Shown here: positions 1,091 to 63,459 of the stretch, piece by piece
How the letters are laid out: every line of letters begins with the position of its first letter
How positions within the stretch are numbered: position 1 is the stretch's first letter
Assembly (NCBI GenBank): GCA_963840855.1
Contig: CAWJBB010000041.1
Location: 64,001 to 128,000, forward strand
DNA length: 64,000 nucleotides
From: an uncultured delta proteobacterium
Lineage (GTDB): Bacteria > Desulfobacterota > Binatia > UBA9968
Reading direction: 5' to 3'
Notes under the pieces: model-generated
What the model saw: the letters and a program-made list of their open reading frames with translations, nothing else
Database searches by the model: none
What the model was told of the DNA's origin: nothing
Program-made: the position numbers and the translations under genes

Positions 1091-2095
1091 ATGAGGCAAT
1101 TTCAAGGATTATCACGTCTAGCGGTTTGTCTCATATTTATGGCATTGACCGCGGGACAATCGTTCGCCCAGGAAAAGAAAAACATTCGAATGGTGTTCGT
1201 AAGCCTGGCTTGGAACAGTGAGATTCCCTTTCGGGCGGCGCTGGCGCGAGGTTTTTTCAAGCAACAAGGGTTGAGTATCGAACCGATCCTGATTCGCGGC
1301 GGTCCGGCGGCCATAGCCGCGCTGGTCTCCGGTGAAGTTGACTTTGCCGCCATTGGCGGCGCGCAGGCGGTTTTTCGCAGCCGCGCCCGCGGATTGGATC
1401 TTTCCATCATTGGATGCACCTCCGGCACGACCAATTACATCTTGCTTGGCAACAAGCAGACTCGGACGGTAGAGGATCTCAAGGGCAAAATGATCGGCAT
1501 AACCGGAGCCGGCACATATTCGGAATTTGCCATGAAGGCGTTTCTCAGAAAATATAACATCAACCCGGACAAGGATGTTACCTTGCGGGCGATCGGCGGA
1601 ACCGTGTTGCGCGCGGCGGCCATCGAAAAGGGAATCATTGCCGCTGCGCCATTTTCGCCTGAAGACGGGGTGCGGCTCCTGAAGAGCGGTTATTCTTTGA
1701 TCAGCAACTTGAGCGAGTCTTTGGGCATACCGCAAAACATCATCGTCAGTCGCAACGAGGTCCTGGAAAAATATCCCGAGACGAGTAAACGGATGCTAAA
1801 AGCTTATATTCAAGGAATCCAGCTCGCCAAGTACAACAAGAAAGAGGCGCTCAAGGCCGGCTTCGATTCCGGCCTGACAGGGGATCCCGAAATCATCGGC
1901 GCCGCCTGGGACCTTTTCGCGCCGGGCCTTACCGCTGATTTATCGATAGTCACCTCTGGACTTCAACAAATGCTCGACGAGGACATCCGTGCCGGTCTTG
2001 TCGATAGCAAGTTCACTCTCGAAAGAGTGGTCAACGATCGTGTTCTCAAGCTCGCCCAGCAGGAGCTGCGGGTCGAAGGGCGGCTCAAACCGTAA
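1091..2095 (+). CDS. ABC substrate-binding protein, NMT1/THI5/SsuA-like
   Basis: Signal peptide; GFFKQQGL, ALVSGEVDF, DLKGKMIGIT motifs. Confidence 0.85.
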   Translation: MRQFQGLSRLAVCLIFMALTAGQSFAQEKKNIRMVFVSLAWNSEIPFRAALARGFFKQQGLSIEPILIRGGPAAIAALVSGEVDFAAIGGAQAVFRSRARGLDLSIIGCTSGTTNYILLGNKQTRTVEDLKGKMIGITGAGTYSEFAMKAFLRKYNINPDKDVTLRAIGGTVLRAAAIEKGIIAAAPFSPEDGVRLLKSGYSLISNLSESLGIPQNIIVSRNEVLEKYPETSKRMLKAYIQGIQLAKYNKKEALKAGFDSGLTGDPEIIGAAWDLFAPGLTADLSIVTSGLQQMLDEDIRAGLVDSKFTLERVVNDRVLKLAQQELRVEGRLKP

Positions 2096-2103
2096 ACGGC
2101 GCG

Positions 2104-2523
2104 GTGGCTTCAGTGAAAGATGCAGAGCCGCAAATTTCGCTTGTCCAGAGTTCGGTCGAACGAAATGACACGCTGGCGCGTTGGAGCATTGGATGGAGCG
2201 TTCAAAACCTCGGCGCGGACCCGATTCGCATCCTAGCCGTGCGCTTGCCGCATGGGCAATTTAAGTCGGAGGAGCTTGGATTCGATCCGCCGGTCGATCT
2301 GGCGCCCGGTGCAACGAGGCAGTTTTCGACTTTGGTCCGCTGCGATGAACCGTCGGGGTTGGTTACCGAAAACGCTTTCGTGATTTTCCAGGCAAACTGG
2401 CGAGGCGAGCCGTGGCGTATATTTGTCCGGCTACGAATAGTCGTCAATGAGAAGGGCGAACCGAACGCAACAACCGAGTTGATAACGACGCAAGAGGTCG
2501 GCTTCACCGGCGTAAAATTCTAG
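2104..2523 (+). CDS. hypothetical beta-rich protein
   Basis: 139-aa ORF starting 8 bp after the SBP stop; alternating hydrophobic pattern suggests an Ig-like fold. Confidence 0.65.
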   Translation: MASVKDAEPQISLVQSSVERNDTLARWSIGWSVQNLGADPIRILAVRLPHGQFKSEELGFDPPVDLAPGATRQFSTLVRCDEPSGLVTENAFVIFQANWRGEPWRIFVRLRIVVNEKGEPNATTELITTQEVGFTGVKF

Positions 2524-2559
2524 CGGGCGTGAGCGATCCCGAACTCAGTGGAGAAAACC

Positions 2560-2781
2560 GTGGCGGATAAAGAAAAAGACCTGTACATCCTCAGACGCAT
2601 GCGCGGCTGACGGAGCAATTGAGGCGTCGGCTTCGAAGAGACCACGGGTATGGTCTCCAATTCTTTGAAGATGGATCAGAAAAAGCTGATCAAAGAGCTC
2701 GAGCGGATCCGGAAGGCCTATGCCGAAGACGCAGATTATCAGAAACTGCGAAAAGATCTGCCGAAAGATTGGCCGCTCTGA
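2560..2781 (+). CDS. putative selenoprotein microprotein with two Sec (UxxxU), 73 aa
   Basis: GGAG RBS 2550-2553, GTG start, in-frame TGA at 2608-2610 and 2620-2622; frame stays open to TGA 2779-2781: MADKEKDLYILRRMRGURSNUGVGFEETTGMVSNSLKMDQKKLIKELERIRKAYAEDADYQKLRKDLPKDWPL. Confidence 0.7.
2631..2670 (+). promoter_or_regulatory. candidate bacterial SECIS hairpin
   Basis: CTTCGAA-GAGACCA-loop CGGGTA-TGGTCTC-bulge-TTTGAAG; the loop starts 22 nt after the second TGA and 34 nt after the first. Confidence 0.65.
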
Positions 2782-2924
2782 ATCGGTTGTCCAGAGTTTA
2801 AAGTCTCGCGTCTCGTTGGATTCGCTATCAACTCTAGCCCGAGACGATCTAACGCAGTTTCTCCGAATGACGACTGAGTTCTCCTATCCCAAGCCAGCTC
2901 AAAACGCTAGACCCTAGACTTTCG

Positions 2925-3677
2925 TTATCGCAATCTAACCGTTGGTTGCCGCAGATTGAGATCCGCCACTCCACCCCAGAACTCCCGCTTGCCCGTCATT
3001 GCCTGGACATGGCCGTCCCATTCCAAGGTGAATGCAGTCAGGCCAAGTTTGACCGCGGCACGAATCTTTTTCTGGGTTTCGTCGTCCTTCGCTAGCAGGC
3101 GAATTGCGTCAATCTGACGGCTGCCGTGGCCTTCGTCCTGGGCCGCGTGGAGATCGTAGGTTTGCGCCGCGCGCGGTGAAAACCCATAGTAACCGGTTAG
3201 CTCCCGATAGACCTTCTCGGAAATTTTACCAGCGCCGCCAAGTTGGCTTTCGACGAAGGCGAGCATGGCGACGCCTTCCAACGCCGAGCGGCGCTGGCAG
3301 CACCCGATGATCATCTCGATTGCCGCTAACGTCCCGGGCGCGGGCTCGGCGTTATCAGCTTCTTCACGCGAGATGCCGCCTTCTTGGAGGAATTGCAGCA
3401 TGATATCGACGTGAGTGTGTTTGCCGCCCAGCTCTTCCATGAAATTTTCCAGGACGGTGTCCATTACCGCGTATTCCTTGGCGGATACGGCATTGATGGC
3501 CATGTAACCGAAGAAGATCGGATTCGTGCGCACCCGCAGATAATGCTGCACTTCACCCAGGATGATCTGCTCTTTGCTCCAACGGTGCTTGATGATGCCG
3601 TCGAACCACGGGTGTTGTTCCATCGGGACTTCGGCGGCGTAGCTCCACAGTTCGGCGATGAACTCGTCAGCGGTCAT
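2925..3677 (-). CDS. heme-oxygenase-like (TenA/PqqC/CADD-type) iron redox enzyme
   Basis: Likely start MTADEFIAEL; HPWF, ENFMEELG-x4-H, FVESQ, H-x3-DEGH ligand motifs. Confidence 0.8.
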   Translation of the reverse strand: MTADEFIAELWSYAAEVPMEQHPWFDGIIKHRWSKEQIILGEVQHYLRVRTNPIFFGYMAINAVSAKEYAVMDTVLENFMEELGGKHTHVDIMLQFLQEGGISREEADNAEPAPGTLAAIEMIIGCCQRRSALEGVAMLAFVESQLGGAGKISEKVYRELTGYYGFSPRAAQTYDLHAAQDEGHGSRQIDAIRLLAKDDETQKKIRAAVKLGLTAFTLEWDGHVQAMTGKREFWGGVADLNLRQPTVRLR

Positions 3678-3814
3678 GAATAAGGTGTAGCGCAATTGCA
3701 GCGTTATTGTCCATAGCAAGTAGAACGGGCTTAGTCTAATTCCTTCTCCCTCTGGGAGAAGGTTAGGATGAAGGCGGGAGAGGGTCGGACGCGCGATAGA
3801 GCGCTTGATTGTAT

Positions 3815-4915
3815 TTACGCGTTGGCGGCTTTTCTCGTCTGCTCCTTTTCGACTCGCGTCTTGAGCCTGGGATAGAATCTCAGCGGGTTGTCCCAGAAAA
3901 TCTTGCGCTTCAGCTCGTCGCTCACGTCTTTGCGATTGATCAAATTCGGGATGTCCTGGCTGAAGTCGCGCTGGTCGCGTTCGTGGGGATAGTCCGATGC
4001 CCAGATGAGCGCGTTGTCGTTCGCTACCTTGGCGGCGAGGGGCAGCGCCGATTCTTCGACTTCCACGGCGAAGTAGATATTGCCCTTTTTGACGTATTCG
4101 CTCGGCTTGAGCTTGCAGCGCGGCGAGTAGTGGCCTTTGCGCTCTTGTTCCTCGTCCATGCGGTCCATCATGTACGGCACCCAACCGACGCCGCATTCGA
4201 TGCAGCCGAATTTGAAATTGGGAAAAAGCTCGAACACGCCTTCGAACATCATGGCGACGAATTGGCGAATCTGCGCGAAGGGATGTTCTAAAGTATGTCC
4301 GATGGTAAAGTTGTTGACCATGTCCAACCCGAGGGACGGCATGCTGAGCCCGCCGTGCGTAGAAACCGGCACGTCGAGTTTCTGCGCTTCTTCCCAGAGC
4401 GGATAGAACTCAGGCCCGCTGTAAAGCCTTCCCGCCGGCGCCACCGCCGGAAGGACGGCTCCGACCATACCTAATTCACTAACAGCGCGGCGCAGTTCTT
4501 TCACGGCTTCGGCAATGTCTTGAATCGGCAGGAGCGCGACCCCCACCAGTCGCGGGCTGACTTTCATGAACTTGTTATAAAGCCAGTCGTTATAGGCCCG
4601 CGCCATGCAGATCGCCCAGTCTTTGTCTTGAATGGCGCCGTGGGTGAGACCCTGCGTCGGGTAAAGAACGGTCAACTCGATTTTGTTTTTGTCGAGAAAA
4701 TCTAGCCAATGATTGGCCTTGGGTCCGTCGCCGCCGCCGGCCCAGCCGCCCTTCTGGCGCAGCGAACGGAGATAGCCGTCCATCGTGAGACCCGGCCAGA
4801 AGGAATAGCTCTGGTGCCATTCCAAATCCTTATAGGGCGGGCCGATGAATTCGCGAAGTTCGCTGTCCAGTTCCATGACATGCCCATCGGCGTCGATGAT
4901 GCGGTAATCTGACAT
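3815..4915 (-). CDS. amidohydrolase family 2 protein
   Basis: IIDADGH, AYNDWL, ECGVGW, WASDYPH motifs. Confidence 0.9.
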   Translation of the reverse strand: MSDYRIIDADGHVMELDSELREFIGPPYKDLEWHQSYSFWPGLTMDGYLRSLRQKGGWAGGGDGPKANHWLDFLDKNKIELTVLYPTQGLTHGAIQDKDWAICMARAYNDWLYNKFMKVSPRLVGVALLPIQDIAEAVKELRRAVSELGMVGAVLPAVAPAGRLYSGPEFYPLWEEAQKLDVPVSTHGGLSMPSLGLDMVNNFTIGHTLEHPFAQIRQFVAMMFEGVFELFPNFKFGCIECGVGWVPYMMDRMDEEQERKGHYSPRCKLKPSEYVKKGNIYFAVEVEESALPLAAKVANDNALIWASDYPHERDQRDFSQDIPNLINRKDVSDELKRKIFWDNPLRFYPRLKTRVEKEQTRKAANA

Positions 4916-4984
4916 TGGCAGAACCTCCTGTGTTACTTTCGATAACTTAAACCATCAGATCAAGTGTAGTCTGGTAGTTTGAAT

Positions 4985-5074
4985 TCACGTATTTCTGGCT
5001 TGAACTCTTCCCTCCCGCAGCGGCTGCAAATAATCATACTTGTCACAGGCGATGGTAAGTTTTAGTTTAGCCAT
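4985..5074 (-). pseudogene. N-terminal remnant resembling 4,5-dihydroxyphthalate decarboxylase family
   Basis: MAKLKLTIACDKYDYLQPLREGRVQ then an early stop; resembles that family's N-terminus from memory. Confidence 0.5.
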
Positions 5075-5233
5075 TGCATCACTTCCCGCGTCGTTTGGTT
5101 TGTTTCAAGTCCCCGAACAGATCATTACTAAAATCTCCCGTGGATTCAACCAGAACTCTTGTTTGGAATTGACAGGTCCGCGTGGGCGGTGCTAAGGGCT
5201 GAACTACGATTCCTATATTTTAAGGAGGCTCTT

Positions 5234-5980
5234 ATGCGCTTCACGGACAAATCAGTCATCATTACCGGCGGCGGCGGCAAGATCGGCAAAGCTTACGCCA
5301 TTGGCTTCGCTAAAGAAGGCGCAAAAGTCGCCTTGCCCGACATTGCCAGCGCCGATCACGTGGTGAAAGCGATCCGGGACATGGGCGGCACGGCCATCAG
5401 CATGGCGTGCGATGTCTCGGATGAAAAGAGCGTCAAGGCGATGGTCGACGAAGTGGCGAAGCAGTTCGGCGGCGTCGATGTGCTGGTCAACAATGCCGCT
5501 TACTTCATGAGCGTCAAGAAAAGCGTGTTTTGGGAAATGGCAGTCGATGAATTCGACAAAGCGATGGCGGTCAACGTGCGCGGGTCGTGGCTCTGCGCCA
5601 AAGCGGCATTTCCGTACATGAAGCAGCAGGGAAAGGGAAAGATCATCAATATTTCTTCCGGCACGGCGCTCAACGGCGGCCAGAATTATATTCATTACGT
5701 GACATCGAAAGGCGCGCTCATTGCGATGACTCGGGCGATGGCAAAAGAGCTCGGTGATTATAATATTTGCGTCAACACGGTAAGCCCAGGCTTCGTCGTC
5801 ACCGAAGGGCGGCAAGTGGATCCAGCCTTCAATGCCAGCCGCGTCGCTGGTCGCGCGCTCAAACGCACGCAGGTGGAAAATGATCTGGTCGGCACCGTGA
5901 TGTTCTTGGCGTCACCCGAGAGTGATTTTATGACTGGCCAGTTGCTCAATGTCGACGGCGGCGCGCATTTTGTGGGGTAG
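5234..5980 (+). CDS. SDR family oxidoreductase
   Basis: TGGGGKIG, NNAA, YVTSK motifs; AAGGAGG RBS. Confidence 0.92.
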   Translation: MRFTDKSVIITGGGGKIGKAYAIGFAKEGAKVALPDIASADHVVKAIRDMGGTAISMACDVSDEKSVKAMVDEVAKQFGGVDVLVNNAAYFMSVKKSVFWEMAVDEFDKAMAVNVRGSWLCAKAAFPYMKQQGKGKIINISSGTALNGGQNYIHYVTSKGALIAMTRAMAKELGDYNICVNTVSPGFVVTEGRQVDPAFNASRVAGRALKRTQVENDLVGTVMFLASPESDFMTGQLLNVDGGAHFVG

Positions 5981-6132
5981 GTGAGACGAGGGGGAAGGCG
6001 TTTCCTCAATCGTCATGCCCGCCCTTCGGCTGGACTCAGGACAAGCTCCAGCGGGCATCCAGGTTGCGGCGGGGGGAGATGCACAGCAGGCGGACTGGAT
6101 TTGGGGCGTAGAAATCAGCGCATTCTACGGGC

Positions 6133-6160
6133 TTGAAGGCCGCCGACGTTGTCCTATAAT
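6133..6160 (+). promoter_or_regulatory. sigma70-type promoter of ccsA-hem operon
   Basis: TTGAAG-N16-TATAAT ending 12 bp before ATG 6173. Confidence 0.55.
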
Positions 6161-6172
6161 GGCCCTGAAATC

Positions 6173-6991
6173 ATGGATATCATCCTGCTCAAGGCCACCG
6201 CGGTATTGTATCTTCTGGCGACCGCGAGTTTTGTCTTCTATGTACTCGTTCGCAATACCGCGTCGCGGCTGCCGACACTAGTCTTGCTCGCTGGATTCTT
6301 GCTCCACACCTCGGCGCTGAGCGTCCATTTTCTCCAGGAAGGATATCCCGCTGTAACACAGTTTCACGAGGCGCTGACTTTCAAGAGCTGGCTCATTGTC
6401 GCGCTTTATTTAGTCATTCAAATCAAATACCGGCTCACGGTTCTCGGCGCCATTGTGACGCCGGTGGCATTCCTCATGACTCTTGCCGCCTTCGCGTTCG
6501 GCGCCGCCAGCGGTGAGCTGCCGCCGGGACTGAGGACTTATTGGCTGCCGGTTCATTTCACGCTCGCGTTCCTCGGCAACGCGGTCTTCGCTTTAGCCTT
6601 CGCGGTGAGCCTGATTTATCTGCTTCAAGAACGCGGCCTCAAGCATAAAAAGATGACCGCTCTCCTCAAGCGAATCCCGTCGTTGGAGGCGCTGGACCGG
6701 TTGAACTATCAGTTGCTCGTATGGGGTTTCCCGCTGATGACCCTCGGCATCTTGACCGGGAGCCTCTTGGCGCGCATTTACTGGGGGGATTATTGGACTT
6801 GGGACCCGCGGCAGATTTCATCGGGAATCGCCTGGCTTTTTTATGGTGCTTTGTTGCACGGGCGTATCACCGCGGGTTTGCGTGGCAAGAAGGCCGCGAT
6901 TCTTACCATGTTCGGATTCTGCGTTGTGCTTGGTTACTTTATCTGGGGCGAAACCCTGTTCCCCAGCCGGCATGGGGGCCGGTTCGAATAA
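6173..6991 (+). CDS. ccsA: cytochrome c biogenesis protein CcsA/CcsB family
   Basis: Multi-TM protein with WWD domain WGDYWTWDPR; directly upstream of hemA. Confidence 0.88.
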   Translation: MDIILLKATAVLYLLATASFVFYVLVRNTASRLPTLVLLAGFLLHTSALSVHFLQEGYPAVTQFHEALTFKSWLIVALYLVIQIKYRLTVLGAIVTPVAFLMTLAAFAFGAASGELPPGLRTYWLPVHFTLAFLGNAVFALAFAVSLIYLLQERGLKHKKMTALLKRIPSLEALDRLNYQLLVWGFPLMTLGILTGSLLARIYWGDYWTWDPRQISSGIAWLFYGALLHGRITAGLRGKKAAILTMFGFCVVLGYFIWGETLFPSRHGGRFE

Positions 6992-6994
6992 GCC

Positions 6995-8281
6995 GTGCAA
7001 AAAGAGATCGTCATCGTCGGTTTGAATCACCGTAGCGCGCCCATCGAAGTGCGCGAAAGCGTCGCTTTCGAAAACGGCTATGTGCGCGACGCGTTGGTGC
7101 GGTTGCGCGGCTATCCGGCCGTCCAAGAAAGCGTGATTCTCTCGACTTGCAACCGCGTCGAAGTGGTCGCGGCGGTCGCCGATGCGCAGACCGCCTGTCA
7201 TGACATGAAAGTATTTCTCGACGAGCAGCGCGCTGAGCATGCTGGGAGCAGTCTGGAGGATCATCTTTACACTTATCGGGGCGCCGATGCGGTGCGCCAT
7301 TTATTTCGCGTGGCGGCAAGCCTCGACTCCATGGTAGTGGGCGAGCCGCAGATATTGGGCCAGCTTAAAGAGTTTTACGATGCTGCGCGGCAAGCCGGTA
7401 CTGTGGGAACGGTCTTGCATCGGCTATTCCACCGGTCCTTTTTCGTGGCCAAGCGGGTGCGCACCGAGACCGGCATCGCCAGCCGCGCCGTTTCCGTGAG
7501 TTCGGTGGCGGTAGATCTCGCGAAGCGGATCTTCGATAGCTTCGATGACAAGACCGTCATGCTGATCGGCGCGGGCAAGATGGGCGATCTGATGGCGCGC
7601 CAGCTCCAGCGCAGCGGCGTGAAGAGTCTGATGGTGACCAATCGTACTTTTGAACGGGCGGTAGCGGTGGCCGAGCGGATACATGGAAGTCCGATCCTAT
7701 TCGAAGATTTTCCGCGCTATCTTAAGATGGCCGACCTGGTGATTGGCTGCACCGGCTCGCCGGAAATCCTGGTGGATGCACCGGCGGTGGAAAAAGTGCT
7801 GCGCGAGCGCAAGCAGCAGCCGATGTTTTTTATCGACATCGGCGATCGGCGAAATTTCGACTCTGCCATTAACGATATTGACAACGCCTATCTCTACAAC
7901 ATCGATGACTTGAAGGAAGTCGCCGAAGAAAATCTCCAGGAGCGATCCAACGAGGCGCAAAAAGCGGAAGAGATCGTGGTCCAGGAAGTCGAGAGTTTCG
8001 GGCGTTGGATCGGATCGCTGGAGCGCGCGCCAACCATCGCTGCGCTGCGCGCGCACTTTGACGAGATTCGCCGGCGCGAATTGGCGAGGTCCTTGAGCGG
8101 CAATCTGAAAGATTTGTCCTCGGAACAACGGCAAGCCCTCGACGACATGACCGCAGCGATGATCAACAAAATGCTGCACGGCCCGATCTCACATTTGAAG
8201 AAAGACGCGCCGGAAGAAGACGAAGAGGACATGCGGTCTATAGCCGCCTTGAAAAAGCTCTTTGACCTGGAGGGCAAATGA
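6995..8281 (+). CDS. hemA: glutamyl-tRNA reductase
   Basis: LSTCNRVE, SLDSMVVGEPQILGQ, GAGKMG. Confidence 0.97.
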   Translation: MQKEIVIVGLNHRSAPIEVRESVAFENGYVRDALVRLRGYPAVQESVILSTCNRVEVVAAVADAQTACHDMKVFLDEQRAEHAGSSLEDHLYTYRGADAVRHLFRVAASLDSMVVGEPQILGQLKEFYDAARQAGTVGTVLHRLFHRSFFVAKRVRTETGIASRAVSVSSVAVDLAKRIFDSFDDKTVMLIGAGKMGDLMARQLQRSGVKSLMVTNRTFERAVAVAERIHGSPILFEDFPRYLKMADLVIGCTGSPEILVDAPAVEKVLRERKQQPMFFIDIGDRRNFDSAINDIDNAYLYNIDDLKEVAEENLQERSNEAQKAEEIVVQEVESFGRWIGSLERAPTIAALRAHFDEIRRRELARSLSGNLKDLSSEQRQALDDMTAAMINKMLHGPISHLKKDAPEEDEEDMRSIAALKKLFDLEGK

Positions 8282-8327
8282 TCAGATGCCGCCGCGTAGG
8301 AGCGGATAAACTCGCGAGGTTAGTGTC

Positions 8328-9248
8328 GTGAAAACCGTCCGCATCGGCACCCGCGGGAGCGCCCTCGCGTTGGCGCAGGCCAATTGGCTGAAGGGAGAGA
8401 TCGAGCGGCAGTGGCCGGCGGCGGAGGTGAACCTTCGAATCATCAAGACCAGTGGCGACCGCTTCGTCGAAGCTTCCCTCCAGGCCATTGGCGGCAAAGG
8501 CGTCTTCACCAAAGAGATCGAAGAGGCTTTGCTCAGCGGCGAAATCGATCTCGCCGTGCATTCGATGAAGGACCTGCCGACGGAATTGGCGCCGGGCCTG
8601 GCCATCATCGCCGTGCCGGAGCGGGAAGATCCGCGCGATGTGTTGGTGGCGCGAAGCGGCGCGCGGTTGAGCGAATTGCCTGCCGGCGCGCGGATCGGCA
8701 CCGGCAGCTTGAGGCGCAAAGCCCAGCTTTTACATTACCGCGCCGATTTATCCGTGGCGCCGATTCGCGGCAACATCGATACCCGTCTCAAAAAACTCGA
8801 CGCCGGCGAGGTCGATGCCCTGGTCATGGCCGCGGCGGGACTCAAGCGCATCGGCAGGGAAGACCGCATTAGCGAATTTCTTCCTGGAGATATCTGCGTG
8901 GGCGCCGCGGCTCAAGGCGCGCTGGCCGTCGAGGCGCGCGACGATGATTCCTTGCGCGAAGAATACGAGTTCCTCGATGATATGCCGACGCATTTCGAGG
9001 TGCAGGGCGAGCGCGGTCTGCTCAAACGCCTCGGTGGCGGTTGCCATTTGCCCGTAGGGGCACGGGCTCAGGTTTATGGTGAATTGATCGAGATCATCGG
9101 CGTTGTCGCGGACCCGGGTGGCCATGAGCTTTTCAAGGCCGAACTGGCTGGACTGGCCATGAAAGCCGAAGAGTTGGGAAAAGAGTTGGCTGATCGGCTG
9201 CTCAGCCAGGGGGCGCAAAAGCTGCTGGCGCGGTTGCAGCCGGAGTAA
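8328..9248 (+). CDS. hemC: hydroxymethylbilane synthase
   Basis: IGTRGSALALAQ, GKGVFTKEIE, AVHSMKD, GGCHLP. Confidence 0.97.
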   Translation: MKTVRIGTRGSALALAQANWLKGEIERQWPAAEVNLRIIKTSGDRFVEASLQAIGGKGVFTKEIEEALLSGEIDLAVHSMKDLPTELAPGLAIIAVPEREDPRDVLVARSGARLSELPAGARIGTGSLRRKAQLLHYRADLSVAPIRGNIDTRLKKLDAGEVDALVMAAAGLKRIGREDRISEFLPGDICVGAAAQGALAVEARDDDSLREEYEFLDDMPTHFEVQGERGLLKRLGGGCHLPVGARAQVYGELIEIIGVVADPGGHELFKAELAGLAMKAEELGKELADRLLSQGAQKLLARLQPE

Positions 9249-9262
9249 GCGAGTCGTAGGAC

Positions 9263-10081
9263 ATGAACGGTAACCACCCGGCGCCGGCATCGCAGATTCT
9301 GTTGGGGAAGCGCATCGTGATTACGCGGGCCCGGGCCCAAGCGGATAGCTTGGCGCGCAGAATTGAAGAGCAGGGTGGCGAGGTGATCGAATTCCCGACG
9401 ATTGAGATACATCCTCCTAGGGATCCACGGCCGCTCGAGGAAGCCATCAAAAAATTAAATTGCTACGACTGGCTGATGTTCACCAGCACCAACGGCGTCG
9501 AGAGATTTTTTGAATGCATGGCTCAACATAAAAGAAGCGTGGCCGAACTGGAGGACGTTCAAATCGCCGCTATCGGGCCTGAAACGGCGAAACGCTTGGA
9601 AACGGCCGGCGTGAAGAACTGCTTGGTGCCCGCGACTTACCAGGCCGAGGGCATTCTTGACGTCCTGAATACGGCGGCCATGCGCGGCAAGCGCGTCCTG
9701 ATCCCACGCGCGGCAAAAGCGCGAGAAATTTTACCCGAAACGCTAAGGCAGTGGGGCGCCGAGGTCGATGTCGTCGAAACCTATCGCACGGTCATTCCGC
9801 AAGCCGACACAGGCAAGCTGAAAGAAACGCTCCGGCGGCGGGCCATCGACATGGTTACGTTCACTAGTCCCAGCACAGTATCGAATTTCGCGCGGCTGTT
9901 CGACGGGCAACGGTTGGCGGATATCTTGGCCGAAACGCCGATTGCCTGCATCGGACCGATCACAAAAAAAACCATCGAAGAGCTAGGCGGTATCGCTGCA
10001 GTATCGGCGCGGGAGTTTACGATTCCCGGATTGGTATACGCTATGGTCGAATATTTCCAAGGCAATTTGCCCCCACCCTAA
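9263..10081 (+). CDS. hemD: uroporphyrinogen-III synthase
   Basis: [27 protein letters not shown]; operon context. Confidence 0.93.
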
Positions 10082-10127
10082 CCTGCGCAAGCGGGGGAGG
10101 AAATGGGAGGGGAGGTCGGAGAAACAA

Positions 10128-11105
10128 ATGGACTTTCCGCGTTACCGGCCAAGACGACTGAGACGCAATGAAAGAATCAGGACGATGGTGCGTGAAACGA
10201 GCCTCAGCCCGAAGAATCTCATCTATCCGCTATTCATCGGTCCGGGAAAGGACAAGGTTCAGCCGGTTTCGTCCATGCCCGGCGTGGCGCAATTGTCCGT
10301 AGACCGCGCGGCGCGCGAGTGCGAGGAGGCCAGCGCGTTAGGAATACCGGCGGTAATTCTCTTCGGTATTCCGGAACACAAAGATGGCGTGGGCAGCGAA
10401 GCCTACGCTGACGACGGTGTGGTGCAGCGGGCGATTCGGCTCATGAAAGAGAAAACTCCCGAGATGCTGGTGATCACCGATGTCTGTTTGTGCGAATACA
10501 CCGACCATGGCCACTGTGGGGTGATCAAAAATGGCGACGTTGACAACGACAGCACCCTGGAGTTGCTCGCGAAAGAAGCGCTGTCTCACGCCCGCGCCGG
10601 CGCCGATATTGTCGGGCCATCGGATATGATGGATGGGCGGGTCGGCGCGATTCGCAAGTCGCTCGACGAAAACGGTTTTGCGCACACCGCGATCATGGCT
10701 TACGCGGCTAAATACGCGTCGGGATTTTACGGGCCGTTTCGCGAAGCGGCGGAGTCGACACCGCAGTTCGGCGACCGCCGCTCGTACCAGATGGACCCGG
10801 CAAACGCAGATGAGGCGTTGCGGGAAGTCGAAATGGACATCCGCGAGGGCGCGGACATCGTCATGGTAAAACCGGCGATGGCCTACCTCGACGTCGTTTA
10901 CCGCGTCAAGCAGAAGTTCGGCTATCCGGTGGCTGCCTATAACGTCAGCGGCGAGTACTCGATGATCAAAGCGGCGGGGGCCAACGGCTGGATCGACGAA
11001 CAGCGCATCATGATGGAGGTTCTACTTTCGATCCGCCGCGCCGGCGCGGACATGATTCTTACCTATTTCGCCAAAGATGCGGCGCGGCTGCTGCACCGAG
11101 AATAA
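10128..11105 (+). CDS. hemB: porphobilinogen synthase
   Basis: [31 protein letters not shown]. Confidence 0.97.
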
Positions 11106-11106
11106 C

Positions 11107-11180
11107 AGTTCAAAACGTTCGATTCGCGAGTGCCCTGAGACGATTTGAATGACTCGAACGTTCGAAATGGTTTGAACGGA
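11107..11180 (+). repeat. GTTCAA/TTGAAC periodic inverted repeat (degenerate)
   Basis: gttcaa aac gttcga ... ttgaat gac tcgaac ... tttgaac between convergent genes. Confidence 0.6.
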
Positions 11181-11184
11181 AATT

Positions 11185-11448
11185 CTAAATCAAATTCCAC
11201 AGGTCTTTGATTTTACGCCTGAGGGTGCGTTCGCATTCGGCTTCCCGCCCGTCGCCGTGCGCCTGGCCATAGGATAAGCGGAAGAGCAGGACACGGGCGC
11301 CTTTGCCAAGTCGGATCAAGTAAGTGTTCGAGTCAGGGTGGTCGTCGTGGACATCTACGGTGAGCTCCTTGTCAACGGTAGACGAAATACGATTCGCCCA
11401 GGCAGCGATTTCCCGCGCGGCCTCCTCGCCCTTCTTGTCGGTGAGCAT
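11185..11448 (-). CDS. hypothetical protein (87 aa)
   Basis: Protein-like ORF flanked on both sides by GTTCAA repeats. Confidence 0.6.
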   Translation of the reverse strand: MLTDKKGEEAAREIAAWANRISSTVDKELTVDVHDDHPDSNTYLIRLGKGARVLLFRLSYGQAHGDGREAECERTLRRKIKDLWNLI

Positions 11449-11457
11449 CTAAAACGT

Positions 11458-11558
11458 ATCGTTCAAGCGGTTCAAAACGTTGAAACAGTTCAAGCCGTTT
11501 TGGATTGGATGAATCGAGACGATTTGAATCGCTTGAACGGCTTGAACGATTTGAACGG
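11458..11558 (+). repeat. 9-nt periodic inverted tandem repeat
   Basis: (nnnGTTCAA)x4-5, spacer, (nnnTTGAAC)x4. Confidence 0.85.
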
Positions 11559-11560
11559 AG

Positions 11561-12558
11561 TCATTTTTTCTTATAGAGGCTGTCGATATAGCCGCTCTGG
11601 TCAAGTTCCCTGATAAAACTTGAATCGGCGAATTGTTCGGGTTTGGCGCTCTTCGCCCGCGGGTCCCGCTCCGCAATCTCGTTGAGAACCGTCTTCAAGC
11701 CCTCTAGGCTCGGGTACTGCTTTTTCGAAAATAGCGTTTCGCTCATGACGTTTTCGTAGCTCTTCTCCAGAAACTCTCGTTCTACGCCCGGCATGTGTTT
11801 ACCGATGGCACGGATGGTGGCTTCCTTGTCCGTCCACATTTTGTGCACTGCTTCAACGTGAGCCTTGACGTAGCGGCGGACTGTGTCCTGGTGCTCGCGG
11901 ATATATTTTTTGGTGGTTGCCGCGCCGGTGTGCTGAAACACCAACCCCATCTTCGCCACATCCGCGAGCACCGCGAGGCCGCGCTTTTCGGCCATGAAGC
12001 TGGAAGGAGGGTTGATGACCGCCGCGGTTACTTTGCCGGTCACCAACGCGTTGAGGCGCTCAGGTCCGCTGCCTACCTGCACGAGCGTTACATCTTTGCC
12101 CGGCGTGAGCCCCACGTTCCGCAGCGCAAAACGGGCGATGGAGTCGGTGGCCGAACCGAACCGGCTAATCGCCAGGGTTCCGCCTTTAAGTTGTTCCGTG
12201 GTTTTGACTCCTTGCCTGCCCATCAGTACGTAGTTGAGGGAAGTAATGCCAGAAGCGACGAACACCGAGTCGGAACCCGCCAGAGAACTGCTTACCAGGC
12301 CGGGTCCGGACACCTGGGTGATCGGCACATCACCGGAGACCAGCGCGAGAATGGCCGTCGTGCCGCCGGTGAAAAAAATCAACTGCACTTCCAGGCCGTT
12401 CTTGGTGAAGATGCCGCTGTCCTTGGCAACCCAGGCCGGCAACTGGTCGGCGCTGACAGCGCTATAGCCGACGTTGAGGCGGGTCATCTGTGCCGACGCC
12501 GAAAACGCGCAGCTAGAATAAACGCGAGGTAGATGGCGAAGGCGAGAAGCTTATTCAT
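11561..12558 (-). CDS. ABC substrate-binding protein NMT1/THI5-like; 1-bp frameshift near 12510 in the signal peptide
   Basis: ATG 12558 MNKLLAFAIYLAFILA.. joins AFSASAQMTRLNVG in another frame; the body is a typical SBP. Confidence 0.8.
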
Positions 12559-12625
12559 TTTTACTACGGAACCCTCCGGAAGACATATTTTGAAGAATAG
12601 TACCGAACGGGGCGGCTAGAAACAA

Positions 12626-12653
12626 GAAAGCCCCTGGCGGGGCAGGGGCTTTC
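12626..12653 (-). terminator. intrinsic terminator after cytochrome c'
   Basis: GAAAGCCCCTG/CAGGGGCTTTC stem followed by TTGTTT on the minus strand. Confidence 0.75.
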
Positions 12654-12696
12654 CTGGGAGTGAATGTTTTGCCGTTGCGACTGGACGAATGACAAC

Positions 12697-13143
12697 CTAT
12701 TCGGAGTATTTGTCGGCCCGGAAGGGTTTGTGGCAATTACCGCAAGCTCCGCTCACAGCTTTTACCTTCGCATCTACGGCTCCGGCGTCACCACTCTTGG
12801 CCGCGGCTGCGAGCTCACCAGCCGCTTTGCTCAAGTTCTTGGCGTTGGCGCCGAAATCATCCGATTTTTCCCAAATCGCCGCCGTTGCCTTGGTTTTGCC
12901 TTTGGTGCTTCCCTTTGGGAAGTGTTCGACGATTTTGTCGGCGCTGCCCATGAGATCCTTCGCTTTGGCTTCCACCGTCGCGTAGTCTTTCGACTCGACG
13001 GCGCCCTTTATCGCCTTGGCAGCGGCGCTCTGGCCTTTCATCAGTTGCTGGCGCTTCTCAATGACATCGGCCTGCGCGAACGCCTGCGAAGAGAATACCA
13101 AAGTCGTGAAGATCGCCGCCGCGATCAAAAAGTATTTGCCCAT
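12697..13143 (-). CDS. cytochrome c' (class II cytochrome c)
   Basis: Signal peptide, RQQLMK, AIW, C-terminal CGNCH. Confidence 0.9.
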   Translation of the reverse strand: MGKYFLIAAAIFTTLVFSSQAFAQADVIEKRQQLMKGQSAAAKAIKGAVESKDYATVEAKAKDLMGSADKIVEHFPKGSTKGKTKATAAIWEKSDDFGANAKNLSKAAGELAAAAKSGDAGAVDAKVKAVSGACGNCHKPFRADKYSE

Positions 13144-13185
13144 AAAGATTGATATCTCCTTTCCTTTTGTGGAATTCGTTAACGT

Positions 13186-13732
13186 CTATTTTTTGTTGAC
13201 TTTCTTCACTTCATTTAAAAGCTGTTCGGTCGAGAGCAAATCTTTCTCCGTGTTCGTCGGCCGAATGTTGAGATACTGGATCACCCCCTCTTTATCGATA
13301 ATGATGTAAGATCGTTTGGCGAGTTTTCTCGGCTCGTCATAGACGCCATACGACTGCATCACTTTACCGTCTCTATCGCTCAGTAATGGGTAGTTGATTT
13401 TGGCGAAGTCTACGAACGCCTTCTGGGAAAACGTGAGCGTTGGCGCTAATCCCTAAGACTTCAGTGTTCTCGGCCTTAAACATCGCAAGATTGTCCGAAC
13501 CGGACGCCTGCAGGTCCTTGATTCAGGTTGGACTAAAATCGAGCACGTAGAAATTGATGAGTACGTTCTTACCTTTCAGGCTACTCAATTTGAGCTTGCC
13601 ACCCGAGGTGCTGTCAAGTTCAAAATCGGGAGCGGGTTGCCCCACTTCGACGGCCGCAATAGAAGAGACCGAAAACAGTGTCATGAGGGCACCGAGCATC
13701 CCGGCCAACATCGCATTTCTAACGCGTGCCAT
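13186..13732 (-). CDS. exported peroxiredoxin (AhpC/TSA) selenoprotein, Sec at codon 70; 1-bp frameshift near 13436
   Basis: VGQPAPDFEL...FYVLDFSPT-TGA-IKDLQ...EVLGISAN, then (+1 shift) TFSQKAFVD...YPLLSDRDG...YGV...RSYIIIDKEGVI to TAG 13186. Confidence 0.85.
13485..13511 (-). promoter_or_regulatory. candidate SECIS of the peroxiredoxin
   Basis: 11 nt after TGA: GCAGG-C-GTCCG-loop GTT-CGGAC-AAT-CTTGC; loop G 22 nt downstream of TGA. Confidence 0.75.
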
Positions 13733-13771
13733 ATGAAATCTCCTTGCCAAACGTTTGTTAACGAGCGGCCC

Positions 13772-13801
13772 TTTATGCCGTACATTTGACAAATTGTCAA
13801 A
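13772..13801 (-). promoter_or_regulatory. promoter TTGACA-N17-CATAAA overlapped by perfect palindrome TTTGACAA-A-TTGTCAAA
   Basis: Seen directly 40-70 bp upstream of the peroxiredoxin start. Confidence 0.55.
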
Positions 13802-13855
13802 TTAAACTACGGGCGCTTTTGCCCTCTGCGGCCAGCTTTGCCATTATGGCTCAAA

Positions 13856-14617
13856 CTAGGGATTAAGCCTCTGGTATATCGCGTTGGCGACCTTTAAAAG
13901 CTCGTCTTTCGGCATCTCTCCGGACAGCGCATAGCTTAGACGACGGTCGAGCCAATAAAATACAGCGACCTTTCCTTGTTGGGAATATCGGAAAGCAGTT
14001 TCACGCTCTGAGCTGGGATCGGTCTTTACGTACAGGGTCAAGCGCTTGCCGCTTGGGTCCTGGTACATGAACTGCGCCACTGGTCCCTGATCGCCCGGAA
14101 GCAAGCGTCCGCCCACTAGTTCGAAGCCGAGATCGACCAGGTGCGGGACTCTGAGCTTACCGCCCAACCGCTTTGAGAGCCAGTTTACCAGGTGTTCTTC
14201 CTGCTCCGCGGTTACTTCCACGGGGTGGCGCACTTCTGGGGTGTAAACCGTATGGGCGAGGGCCGCCTGCCGGGCAAAATCAACGTCCTTTGCTGACCTG
14301 CTGGTTGTTTCTCCGCGCAGAAACCAACCCAATATTCCCCCGACAACGATCCAAGCCAGGGCCGCGGCAACGGCTTTTGCCGGGAAGGGCCAGCGGCGCG
14401 CCAAAGTTTGCCACTTCGCTGGGACAGGTTCAGCTAGCACTGGGTCGAAGAAAGCATGCAGTATCCGATTTTGCTCCTGGTAAGCTTGCACCCGCGCCTG
14501 TTCCTGTGGATTGCCGGAGAGAAAAGTTTCCACTTCGCCCCGGCGTTCCTGCGCCAGCCCGCCGTCAACATAAGCGTGTAAGTCAGTTTCTGATACGGCT
14601 GCGCTTTGGGTGGTCAT
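13856..14617 (-). CDS. transmembrane anti-sigma factor
   Basis: LHAYVDG N-terminus, one TM, HPVEV, WLSKRLG, GGRLLP; overlaps the ECF sigma stop. Confidence 0.88.
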   Translation of the reverse strand: MTTQSAAVSETDLHAYVDGGLAQERRGEVETFLSGNPQEQARVQAYQEQNRILHAFFDPVLAEPVPAKWQTLARRWPFPAKAVAAALAWIVVGGILGWFLRGETTSRSAKDVDFARQAALAHTVYTPEVRHPVEVTAEQEEHLVNWLSKRLGGKLRVPHLVDLGFELVGGRLLPGDQGPVAQFMYQDPSGKRLTLYVKTDPSSERETAFRYSQQGKVAVFYWLDRRLSYALSGEMPKDELLKVANAIYQRLNP

Positions 14618-15120
14618 TTGATCACCTTGAGTTGCGCCGCAGAACTGCCTCTGTTCATCATCGAGCGCAGTTGTTCGCGGCCGCGGGACAAACGGGACAT
14701 GACGGTGCCGATAGGCACGCCGAGGACCTTTGCTGCTTCGTCATAGGACAGCTGTTCTAACCCAATCAATAATACGACTTCCCTTTGTTCATGGGGCAAT
14801 CGCTGCAGGAATTTGTTCAGGTCGATTAACTCGAGCTGATTGTCGTGTGTCGGCGAAACTTGCAAATCAACTTCGTTATGCCCGATGCCCTGACTCGTGC
14901 GCCGTCGTCCGGCCTTGAGTTGGTTGACATAAAGATTGTGCATAATTGTGAAGAGCCAAGCGCGCAGGTCGCTGCCCGGACGCCAAAGTGCCATGCGCTT
15001 CCAACCCCTCTCGATGGTATCCTGCACTAGGTCTTCCGCCGAGGTGAAATCACCGGTCAACGCTCTTGCGTAGCGGCGTAGTTGCGGAATGTAGTTGATT
15101 ATGCCGTCAGCATCCGCCAC
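14614..15120 (-). CDS. ECF RNA polymerase sigma factor
   Basis: LRRYARAL, AEDLVQD, AWLFTIMHN, GTVMSRLSRGR; start uncertain. Confidence 0.92.
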   Translation of the reverse strand: MADADGIINYIPQLRRYARALTGDFTSAEDLVQDTIERGWKRMALWRPGSDLRAWLFTIMHNLYVNQLKAGRRRTSQGIGHNEVDLQVSPTHDNQLELIDLNKFLQRLPHEQREVVLLIGLEQLSYDEAAKVLGVPIGTVMSRLSRGREQLRSMMNRGSSAAQLKVIK

Positions 15121-15253
15121 GGTCGTCTCGACTCCTCGCTCATTATGACGCTGGCCGCGCGATCTCGCGAGAAACCTTTTCATGAGCAAACAACCCGCCA
15201 ACGGAATTTATTCCCCAAACCGGCAATTTTAGTCGCGCCGTCGGCCGCTGTTT

Positions 15254-17674: not shown

Positions 17675-17855
17675 ATGCTTCGTTGCGCGCGATCACCTCA
17701 TAGTGACTGGAGTGCTGGAGTACTGGAGTGGCGGAATGATGGGCTCGAGCCCCAATCCTCCAATACTCCGTTACTCCAACGCTCCATTTCATTCGCGCGC
17801 CTCGCCTCTGAGATCTTTGAGCAGCCTGCAATCAGAGTTATTCAGCGGGCCGCTA
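17649..17855. mobile_element. MITE-like element with an internal 8-nt periodic hairpin
   Basis: Ends TAGCAGGTTGCTGAAAAA / TTATTCAGCGGGCCGCTA; contains (CTGGAGTr)n...(CCAnTACT-like)n at 17707-17786. Confidence 0.6.
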
Positions 17856-18455
17856 AAGAATCGTTTTAACCGATGGGCGGTCTTTCATTCTCTGCAGATA
17901 TTTGCCCAGGCGGGGCAGTGAGGGATCCGGTAACACGCCAAAACCTTCAAGCCGCGTAAAGCGCGGGATCAAGTCAGCGTCAACCAGGGAAAAATTACCC
18001 ATCAGATACTCTTTATCACCGAGTTCTTGTTCCAGACGCTGGAGCCGTTTCTTGATGTCCTCTTTTGCCGCATTGAGGGTCTCCTGGTTGCGCTCCTTTT
18101 CGTCCTTTGTCATTTCCATGCGCAACTTCGTATACGCCGAGTCCATTTGCGTCAGGCCGAAATCGACCAGGATGCGGGCTTTCGCCCGCGCCCCAGGGTC
18201 AGTGGGCATGAGCCGCGTCGCCGGATACTTTTCATCTAGATATTCATTGATGATGCAGCTTTCGTACAGAACGTTGTCGCCATCGGCGATGGCCGGCACC
18301 TTGCCGTACGGATTGATCTTAAGATAATCGGGGGTTTTTTGTTCCCCGGCGCGTAGGTCGACGTTTACGGTCTCGTAGGGGATCTTCTTTTCCTCCAGGA
18401 CGACCTTTACGCGCTGGCAGTTGGGCGACGATTTGAAATCATAAAGCTTTAACAT
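17853..18455 (-). CDS. glutathione S-transferase
   Basis: SPNCQRV, INPYGKVP, ESCIINEYL, FSLVD. Confidence 0.93.
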   Translation of the reverse strand: MLKLYDFKSSPNCQRVKVVLEEKKIPYETVNVDLRAGEQKTPDYLKINPYGKVPAIADGDNVLYESCIINEYLDEKYPATRLMPTDPGARAKARILVDFGLTQMDSAYTKLRMEMTKDEKERNQETLNAAKEDIKKRLQRLEQELGDKEYLMGNFSLVDADLIPRFTRLEGFGVLPDPSLPRLGKYLQRMKDRPSVKTIL

Positions 18456-18548
18456 CTCTGTTCTCCCTTCATAGTGACTTTTTTTTGGGTGCCTATGATT
18501 TTTACACTAAGTAGCGAGAAAAAGGCAAAGGAAAGAGGGGTGCGAAAA

Positions 18549-18767
18549 ATGGCTTGATCTGACACTGGATTGGTGCTAAGCGCATTACTCAAATTGACGA
18601 AGGGGCGCGATCTTCATTTTATCGGCGCTAAAGTCACTACGGAACGCACCGAAGTGCGACCGTATCCGGTGGACGAGGTGGAGAACAAATACCACTTTAT
18701 TCGGCATGTGGAAATGACCGAGAAGATCGAGATTCTAAGGATGAATCTGCCGGCGAGCTACAGCTAA
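18549..18767 (+). CDS. small protein, possible Sec at codon 3 (MAU...)
   Basis: GAGGGG RBS 8 nt before ATG-GCT-TGA, in frame with the 65-aa ORF 18570-18767. Confidence 0.45.
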
Positions 18768-63371: not shown

Positions 63372-63459
63372 GGAGGGGTGGGAGAGCGGTTTAATCCACC
63401 GGTCTTGAAAACCGGCGTCCATTCGTGGACCGCGAGTTCAAATCTCGCCCACCTCGCCA
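63372..63459 (+). tRNA. tRNA-Ser(TGA), acceptor stem with two mismatches
   Basis: D arm GGA/TCC, anticodon arm CCGGT-CTTGAAA-ACCGG, long variable arm GTCCA/TGGAC, T arm GCGAG-TTCAAAT-CTCGC, G73-CCA. Confidence 0.85.

Follow-up and report, generated by a model that had tools for sequence, protein, structure and literature searches.

A 73-codon bacterial gene with two in-frame TGA codons, a probable U-x3-U selenoprotein gene linked to a CADD-like heme-oxygenase-like enzyme

We describe here a small gene at positions 2560–2781, on the plus strand, of a 64,000-nucleotide stretch of DNA from an uncultured delta proteobacterium of the Binatia (the window: positions 64,001–128,000 of contig CAWJBB010000041.1, assembly GCA_963840855.1). 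The window is part of contig C41 of a 7.1 Mb assembly of 93 contigs (G000), which is 94% complete with 8% contamination. The gene opens with a GTG codon, 6 nucleotides (nt) after a Shine–Dalgarno-like GGAG read from the sequence (2550–2553, plus strand), and runs for 73 codons to a terminal TGA at 2779–2781. Its frame is interrupted only by two further in-frame TGA codons on the same strand, at 2608–2610 (residue 17) and 2620–2622 (residue 21), an arrangement that the original prediction, made from the letters of the window alone, had described correctly. Reading through both gives the translation ...RMRG-U-RSN-U-GVGFEETTGMVSN..., in which U stands for selenocysteine (Sec), and the gene as drawn is supported by this translation together with its conservation, its codon periodicity, its Cys-x3-Cys homologs and an AlphaFold2 model. 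The standard list of open reading frames (ORFs) holds at this locus only a 43-codon piece that starts at an ATG at 2650. We consider it highly probable that 2560–2781 is one gene, that both of its UGAs are decoded as Sec and that its product is a member of a U-x3-U family with a likely accessory role to an enzyme.

The gene is shared by many soil bacteria, and every DNA copy collected from relatives retains both TGAs. A six-frame search of 61 genomes, namely the window's own and 60 relatives from three families within one order, returned 51 full-length matches spread over 49 genomes, each with exactly two in-frame TGAs (51/51); here and below, the 61-genome tallies of the small gene, of selA and of the enzyme take in two unpublished genomes (G009 and G015). 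A scan of prokaryotic species, each represented by one genome, yielded 72 loci, 71 of which have exactly two in-frame TGAs and share the pattern M/L-R-G-U-x-x-[NRS]-U-...-F-E-E-T-T-G-M-V-S-N; the 72nd failed the motif filter and was left out of the counts, and the neighbour counts given below use the 71. In a sample of 301 Chloroflexota genomes there are nine carriers, again all with two in-frame TGAs (9/9). After removal of duplicates, the Sec-form DNAs amount to 77 distinct versions, and both TGAs, as well as the 9-nt gap after each of them, are invariant in 77/77. The terminal stop, on the other hand, varies among relatives and may be TGA, TAA or TAG, as judged from translations, with its position kept. 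Upstream, 73 of the 77 have an in-frame ATG, at a distance of 14 or 16 codons from the first TGA. Mean conservation at codon positions 1, 2 and 3 is 0.74, 0.81 and 0.53 over the 13 codons before the first TGA and 0.63, 0.84 and 0.48 over the C-terminal part, and coding periodicity and protein-level conservation, the pattern looked for in bacterial selenoprotein genes, are therefore present on both flanks of the TGAs. The protein-like sequence that had been noted on both sides is thus conserved upstream of ATG 2650 and through both TGAs, and not only downstream. Furthermore, RNA-library contigs of relatives do not carry TGC, TGT or TGG in place of the two codons: four metatranscriptome libraries were compared on 1900–3800, and contigs of three of them cover parts of 2512–2783 with both TGAs unchanged, the uncovered parts having no weight as evidence.

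Some observations concern the copies themselves and the organisms to which they have been assigned. Within the same assembly, contig C56 (17,513 bases) is a 98%-identical copy, in reverse orientation, of window positions 1171–18606; it carries a second copy of the small gene at 15906–16124, with 93% protein identity, and a second copy of the enzyme gene, and it could reflect strain heterogeneity in the bin, whose contamination is 8%, or a true duplication. Near-identical copies of the small gene also occur in records of metagenome-assembled genomes (MAGs) labelled Verrucomicrobiia, Udaeobacter, Pyrinomonadaceae, Eisenbacteria or Acidiferrales, and at least one of them, a record under the label Acidiferrales, turns out to be identical with an assembly assigned to the family of the window itself. 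The organism labels on some MAG records are thus unreliable, and the range of phyla cannot be taken from them; we therefore claim only two separate bacterial groups, a Binatia-type order and Chloroflexota/Dehalococcoidia.

Homologs with Cys in place of Sec are found in other organisms. When 1.84 billion representative proteins were searched with a profile, 124 matched, mostly as 43-residue stumps. Among 25 matches that were fetched, 22 have C-x3-C at exactly both TGA columns, the other three being one out-of-frame call and two unrelated repeat proteins, and in the full-length homologs the residue aligned to the TGAs is indeed Cys and not another residue. The named Cys forms comprise four clusters of hypothetical proteins of archaeal MAGs, under the names Heimdallarchaeota, Sulfolobaceae, Thermoplasmata and Marsarchaeota, and one Chloroflexota protein, MBM2810598.1. 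A metagenome scan with six Cys forms then gave 80 loci, of which 79 fit the Cys motif, corresponding to 67 distinct DNAs. In these, Cys is invariant at both positions and is written with both of its codons (TGC 48 and TGT 19 at the first, TGC 46 and TGT 21 at the second). Mixed forms, with one Sec and one Cys, were seen neither in the 77 distinct DNAs of the Sec form nor in the 67 of the Cys form. Apart from the two chalcogen residues, Sec and Cys forms have in common F24, T27, M30, R63, P67 and the C-terminal [WF]-P. The Cys forms are single uninterrupted ORFs, in which the Met that corresponds to ATG 2650 is an internal invariant residue. Public protein databases, on the other hand, store the Sec family almost entirely as a 43-residue stump from that internal Met, which bears out the expectation that the gene would be invisible to standard gene callers. 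Four JGI proteins have W at both Sec positions, and since in two of them the terminal TGA is likewise read as W, we take these forms, for which proteins alone and no DNA were at hand, as gene calls made with genetic code 4.

AlphaFold2, run on an alignment of 29 sequences with Cys substituted for Sec, models the small protein with high confidence (predicted local distance difference test, pLDDT, 91.8; predicted template modelling score, pTM, 0.77) as four helices, at 3–20, 24–34, 39–53 and 57–63, followed by a non-helical tail that is conserved as R-x3-P-x2-[WF]-P. The two Sec residues are alignment positions 16 and 20 and fall in the last turns of helix 1, where the predicted pair is one turn apart on the same face, at an i, i+4 spacing derived from the sequence. 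To our knowledge, the catalogued double-Sec families have thioredoxin-like, rhodanese or zinc-ribbon folds and not a four-helix bundle. Consistent with the earlier failure to recognize a family, scans of the read-through protein against Pfam and NCBIfam gave no NCBIfam family at E-values up to 10 and a single 14-bit chance match in Pfam, and no credible match came from the same scans of ten Cys forms; searched as a sequence profile against the PDB, the Cys forms hit only chance matches, and a look-up in the ESM Atlas with one Cys form gave no usable match.

Set against what is catalogued, the family is new, though of a known kind, the bacterial selenoprotein with an in-frame selenocysteine insertion sequence (SECIS). 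The motif UxxxU is absent from the motif table of 119 prokaryotic selenoprotein families and subfamilies in a recent survey (PMC13188914, 2026), and we found no description of a U-x3-U family in the literature on selenoproteins with Binatia or Binatota, whose supplements may list further candidates. The same survey, in the part available, catalogues three double-Sec families, the metal-binding protein NF041115 (UxxU), the FmdB-family TIGR02605 (UxxU) and TsoB NF045694 (UxxxxU) (PMC13188914). The small protein resembles these in a bacterial gene that has two UGAs a few codons apart and an in-frame SECIS after them, in a Sec pair that is presumed to be redox-active or metal-binding, and in a gene that standard annotation shortens; unlike them, it has the U-x3-U spacing and is predicted to be a four-helix bundle with both Sec in one helix. 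It also resembles the UxxC and CxxU selenoproteins (thioredoxin, glutaredoxin, AhpD-like and SelW-like), which are likewise small, have Cys homologs in organisms without Sec and carry an in-frame SECIS. Those families, however, usually have one Sec and one Cys, whereas here there are always two Sec or two Cys.

Downstream of the second TGA lies a candidate SECIS, hairpin B (2638–2657, plus strand), identified by minimum free energy (MFE) folds, frozen synonymous sites and the bacterial SECIS (bSECIS) criteria. It consists of a 7-bp stem, GAGACCA/TGGTCTC, closing a 6-nt loop CGGGNA (2645–2650), and reads GAGACCA / CGGGTA / TGGTCTC in the window copy. It is found in the MFE fold of 71 of the 77 distinct sequences and folds alone at -9.2 kcal/mol, as against a median of -3.4 kcal/mol for the equivalent 20-nt stretch in the Cys forms. 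Its loop begins 22 nt past the second TGA and 34 nt past the first. The published bSECIS model, as given in the part of the survey available to us, has a loop of 3–9 nt, a stem of 4–16 bp, a G within the first two loop positions, a UGA spacing of 16–37 nt and an MFE of at most -7.5 kcal/mol (PMC13188914), and hairpin B, with its 6-nt loop, 7-bp stem and G at loop position 2, fits this model for both TGAs. Of the hairpin first proposed at this locus, the 7-bp stem and its G-containing loop thus hold, whereas the lower stem, CTTCGAA/TTTGAAG, pairs in the window copy but lacks conservation among relatives and was rejected as part of the element.

The constraint on hairpin B goes beyond that on the protein. 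Over 2632–2657 in the Sec forms, synonymous sites are frozen (TTC, GAG and ACC each in 77/77, ACG in 74/77 and GTC in 76/77), and only a loop base (GGT, GGC, GGA or GGG) and the bases flanking the stem are variable. At the same sites the Cys forms use TTC 46 times and TTT 21 times, four Thr codons and three Val codons, and their amino acids vary as well. Hairpin B thus has sites that are fixed in the Sec forms but open to change in the Cys forms, and the extra constraint is therefore specific to the TGA form and acts on the RNA.

A second, shorter hairpin (hairpin A, 2620–2635, plus strand), whose arms GAGGC/GCTTC had been pointed out as a possible element for the first TGA, does exist and is conserved in relatives, as seen in an RNAalifold consensus. 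It has a stem of 5–6 bp, the 5' arm of which contains the second TGA, and a 4-nt loop (2626–2629). Four of its pairs are invariant; the pair 15–24 is G-T in 62 sequences and A-T in 15, and the pair 17–22 is formed in 70 of the 77, in three of them by a two-sided change, and broken in seven. The core of hairpin A lies within the MFE fold of 45 of the 77 sequences. It is possibly a helper for the first TGA.

The genome has Sec machinery and makes ordinary use of TGA. The genes selA, selB and selD lie together at C1:37592–41868, selD itself having an in-frame TGA. TGA ends 693 of 1718 stop-to-stop frames of at least 400 codons and is the commonest of the three stops, and it is thus not reassigned, in agreement with the original prediction that no change of code is involved. 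The genome is rich in selenoprotein candidates, with nine matches to the AhpC/TSA family that have an in-frame TGA followed by hairpins, in addition to selD, and in its other selenoprotein genes the hairpin loops lie about 20–28 nt past the UGA. One of them is a peroxiredoxin gene within the window (about 13433–13645, minus strand), whose hairpin loop lies 22 nt past its TGA, the same offset as that of hairpin B from the second TGA, as had been remarked. In the window copy of this peroxiredoxin gene (about 13273–13645, minus strand; C41:77273–77645), the AhpC/TSA model is matched by two overlapping stretches, of which one has an in-frame TGA and the other a TAG, suggesting a frameshift or an assembly error; the copy on C56 matches in one piece. 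About 1.1 kb separates two tRNA-Ser(UGA) genes, one at window 63372–63456 and the other at C41:128557–128644, just past the end of the window; both are best sub-threshold matches of the tRNA-Sec model, yet they are ordinary tRNA-Ser genes and were set aside.

Directly upstream of the small gene, at 2104–2523 on the plus strand, lies a gene for a 139-aa protein with an immunoglobulin (Ig)-like beta-sandwich, which is its conserved operon partner in bacteria. A protein of 130–150 residues is encoded upstream in 69 of the 71 loci, in 68 of these on the same strand and directly upstream. It has no Pfam or NCBIfam match; AlphaFold2 models it with eight strands (pLDDT 93.7), and comparison with the PDB gave only generic beta-sandwich matches with TM scores of 0.3–0.4 (ASF1, ApaG, TRAP-beta and archaeal pilins), and with the ESM Atlas only unnamed clusters. 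The operon proposed at the outset, of a substrate-binding protein and a beta protein, is thus upheld for the beta protein and not for the substrate-binding protein, whose gene is near the small gene in only 22 of the 71 loci.

The most informative neighbour, which the original prediction missed, is a convergent gene for a heme-oxygenase-like dimetal enzyme resembling CADD (2925–3677, minus strand, the start at 3677 being taken from the ORF translation). It is identified by Pfam and by structures, and it faces the small gene from downstream in 63 of the 71 loci, some of the others ending at a contig edge. The enzyme matches Pfam Haem_oxygenas_2 at 5.7e-17 (62.5 bits, against a cut-off of 28.9) and TENA_THI-4 at 3.5e-08, and its nearest solved structures are CT610/CADD and 4-aminobenzoate synthase (E 4e-14). 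Parts of its gene are covered in all four metatranscriptome libraries, where presence in an RNA library is not in itself a demonstration of transcription. Six of its residues, E77, H84, E138, H172, D176 and H179, are invariant in 35 orthologs and align with what we take to be the metal-ligand positions of CADD. The enzyme is in these respects, its Haem_oxygenas_2 fold family and its invariant residues at the aligned ligand positions, like CADD/CT610, the self-sacrificing 4-aminobenzoate synthase. Unlike it, the enzyme scores far below the cut-off of the CADD family model TIGR04305 (59 bits against 200), has an invariant Phe20 where CADD has Tyr27 and has Val where CADD has Lys152. Tyr27 is sacrificial in CADD, and a role for Lys152 is described as well, in the portion of the literature available (PMC13108848). 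Because both residues are replaced and the score is so low, the self-sacrificing chemistry of CADD is unlikely in the present enzyme. Directly upstream of the enzyme gene, an Amidohydro_2 gene lies at 3815–4915 on the minus strand, probably in one operon with it.

The two genes also travel together among genomes. Of the 61, the same 49 have both the enzyme and the small gene, and in the same 12 neither was found, six of these 12 being 97–100% complete. As the genes are adjacent, this indicates gain and loss as a unit and not an independent co-occurrence. The Cys-form loci lend independent support to the link: a gene with zf-C2H2_9 and TENA_THI-4/Haem_oxygenas_2 domains, close to the solved structure 4lqx, lies directly downstream and on the same strand in 72 of 79. 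Some of these loci have other neighbours as well: upstream, a ThyX-type thymidylate synthase (Pfam Thy1) in 8 of 79, for example L178:1513–2160, and DUF169 in 10 of 79. ThyX beside a CADD-like enzyme is a possible hint of a folate-related context.

We propose that the gene is translated as one 73-residue polypeptide, in which SelB and Sec-tRNA would read both internal UGAs as selenocysteine. Hairpin B would direct insertion at both codons, lying at a permitted distance from each, and hairpin A may assist. The family would consist of four-helix proteins of about 70 residues with a chalcogen pair, its members four apart, at the C-terminal end of helix 1, the pair being U-x3-U in bacteria and C-x3-C in the named archaeal forms.

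Several points weigh against this reading. First of all, Sec insertion, the assignment of the hairpin to the two UGAs and the biochemical role are drawn from sequence comparisons rather than from biochemical proof, and the accessory role is drawn entirely from gene linkage. Second, the upper stem of hairpin B gives no covariation proof of its pairing, because it never varies; hairpin A lacks a G in its first two loop positions in 50 of the 77 sequences (pair 18–21) and begins only 9 nt after the first UGA. Third, while selA, selB and selD were found, as the idea of a selenoprotein calls for, the gene for tRNA-Sec (selC) was not found in the 94%-complete assembly: Aragorn returned 40 tRNAs with no SeC among them, the best matches of Rfam RF01852 in the assembly were below the cut-off and correspond to tRNA-Ser, tRNA-Leu or others, and an Rfam scan around selAB showed no adjoining tRNA-Sec. 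Since the assembly yields only 40 tRNAs, we regard this as a gap and not as evidence of absence. Fourth, selA was present in 5/5 genomes tested via their loci (two of them identical with the assemblies G021 and G056) and in 9/9 Chloroflexota carriers, but it is also over the cut-off in 57 of the 61 relatives regardless of the gene and in 231 of the 301 Chloroflexota, a tally that takes in five unpublished genomes (G103, G210, G238, G292 and G337). With selA nearly universal or common, its co-occurrence with the gene says little, and the nine carriers are weakly informative. Fifth, Foldseek found no match to the predicted fold in the PDB at E ≤ 0.001, the best having E 0.37, and its weak top matches are helix-turn-helix domains of LuxR/GerE, LysR N-terminal and DtxR types (E ≥ 0.37, TM 0.4–0.58). 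Finally, as regards the partnership, the bacterial enzyme gene is convergent with the small gene and not in its operon; no fusion with the enzyme was seen among the longer proteins in a search with the Cys-form alignment, which is weak evidence; and the bacterial and archaeal enzymes are distant, with a BLASTP match of 50 residues at E 9e-05. Shared Pfam families and this weak match are what links the two enzymes, and hidden Markov models of the two bacterial neighbour clusters found no match in the Cys-form loci.

The alternative that survives best is that the two UGAs are read through without two Sec, either because a near-cognate tRNA (Trp, Cys or Arg) is accepted at one or both of them or because Sec is inserted at one site only. 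The missing tRNA-Sec would sit well with it, as would the position of the first UGA, whose 34 nt to the loop are near the upper limit of the 16–37 nt model, and the service of two UGAs 12 nt apart by one hairpin is, for this gene, a prediction. Yet the Sec machinery genes are present together with many other genes with an in-frame TGA in this genome, hairpin B agrees with the bSECIS model at either codon, and the constraint on the RNA is found in the TGA form only. Closely spaced double Sec is, moreover, accepted elsewhere, in the UxxU and UxxxxU families as far as these are described in the survey (PMC13188914). We therefore consider this alternative improbable.

A second possibility is that the locus makes two products, a 16-residue leader that ends at the first UGA, with the second as a back-up stop, and a 43-residue protein that starts at ATG 2650, with the hairpin hiding a weak ribosome-binding site, GAAGAG or GAGGAG, and the ATG, and translation of the leader controlling the downstream protein. 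ATG 2650 is invariant and is where gene callers start; one or the other of these motifs precedes it by 9 nt, and it falls within the 3' side of hairpin B. The coding periodicity of the leader does not discriminate, because in this arrangement the leader is translated too. The Cys forms are harder to accommodate, in that they run uninterrupted, with Cys at both TGA columns and the Met internal. The stop of a leader, furthermore, could be any of the three, yet both codons are TGA in 77/77 while the last stop varies; the codon before the second TGA varies synonymously only (AAT 48 and AAC 21, and CGT, CGG or CGC), and the residues that flank the TGAs lie in one continuous helix of a confidently predicted fold (AlphaFold2). 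An arrangement of two products thus appears very improbable to us. That the locus is no gene at all, being a conserved non-coding RNA element, as the extreme nucleotide conservation from 2620 to 2657 might suggest, or the decayed pseudogene of a Cys-containing ancestor, is hardly credible, given third-position variation typical of coding on both flanks, upstream lengths that change in whole codons (14 or 16), a final stop whose position is kept and the same two ‘defects’, with no others, in every copy across at least two phyla.

On the preferred reading, that of one gene with two Sec, the small protein would be a dedicated accessory of the CADD-like heme-oxygenase-like dimetal enzyme. We propose this role because heme-oxygenase-like enzymes of two domains of life have a Cys- or Sec-pair protein at their side, in different gene orders. 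The protein may act as a two-electron redox partner that cycles between diselenol and diselenide, or it may carry a metal or a cluster by means of its Sec pair, and in bacteria it probably works with the upstream Ig-like 139-aa protein. The ‘diselenide or metal-binding’ nature first put forward for it is, likewise, something that we infer. As far as the available portion of a recent account goes, none of the heme-oxygenase-like enzymes investigated to date requires a protein effector, MboB is the redox partner of MboA, and a selenoprotein partner is not mentioned for these enzymes (PMC13108848, 2026). Like MboB for MboA, the present protein is small, separate and genetically tied to a dimetal O2-activating enzyme, here as judged from the genes alone. 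The literature on selenoproteins with heme oxygenase-like or diiron enzymes, and that on 4LQX, PF16293 and zf-C2H2_9, showed no such link.

A more specific proposal, which we offer tentatively and regard as rather doubtful, is that this is the first dedicated partner of a CADD-like enzyme, and that the two form an ancient pair whose small member has a Cys-x3-Cys in archaea and, in bacteria, a diselenol in its place. This member might then re-reduce or load the dimetal site, or it might supply in trans what CADD sacrifices in cis, an idea that comes from the replacement of the sacrificial Tyr by Phe in the enzyme. If true, such a supply in trans would make catalytic what is otherwise a single-turnover chemistry.

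With this gene, the prokaryotic selenoproteome would gain a family whose U-x3-U motif is not yet listed and whose predicted four-helix fold is not that of thioredoxin, occurring in 49 of 61 searched relatives (Candidatus Binatia, going by record titles) and in 9 of 301 sampled Chloroflexota. It also exposes an error of annotation, in that the real protein is represented in databases by a stump of 43 residues or by a ‘Trp’ translation under code 4. Furthermore, the gene would be a natural experiment on SECIS spacing, with two obligatory UGAs, 12 nt apart, and one hairpin at 22 and 34 nt from them. To the specialist, its interest lies in an obligatory Sec pair at i, i+4, in one hairpin for two UGAs and in the tie to a CADD-like enzyme. 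This last linkage, seen in bacteria as well as archaea, makes the small protein a candidate partner for an unstudied branch of heme-oxygenase-like oxidases.

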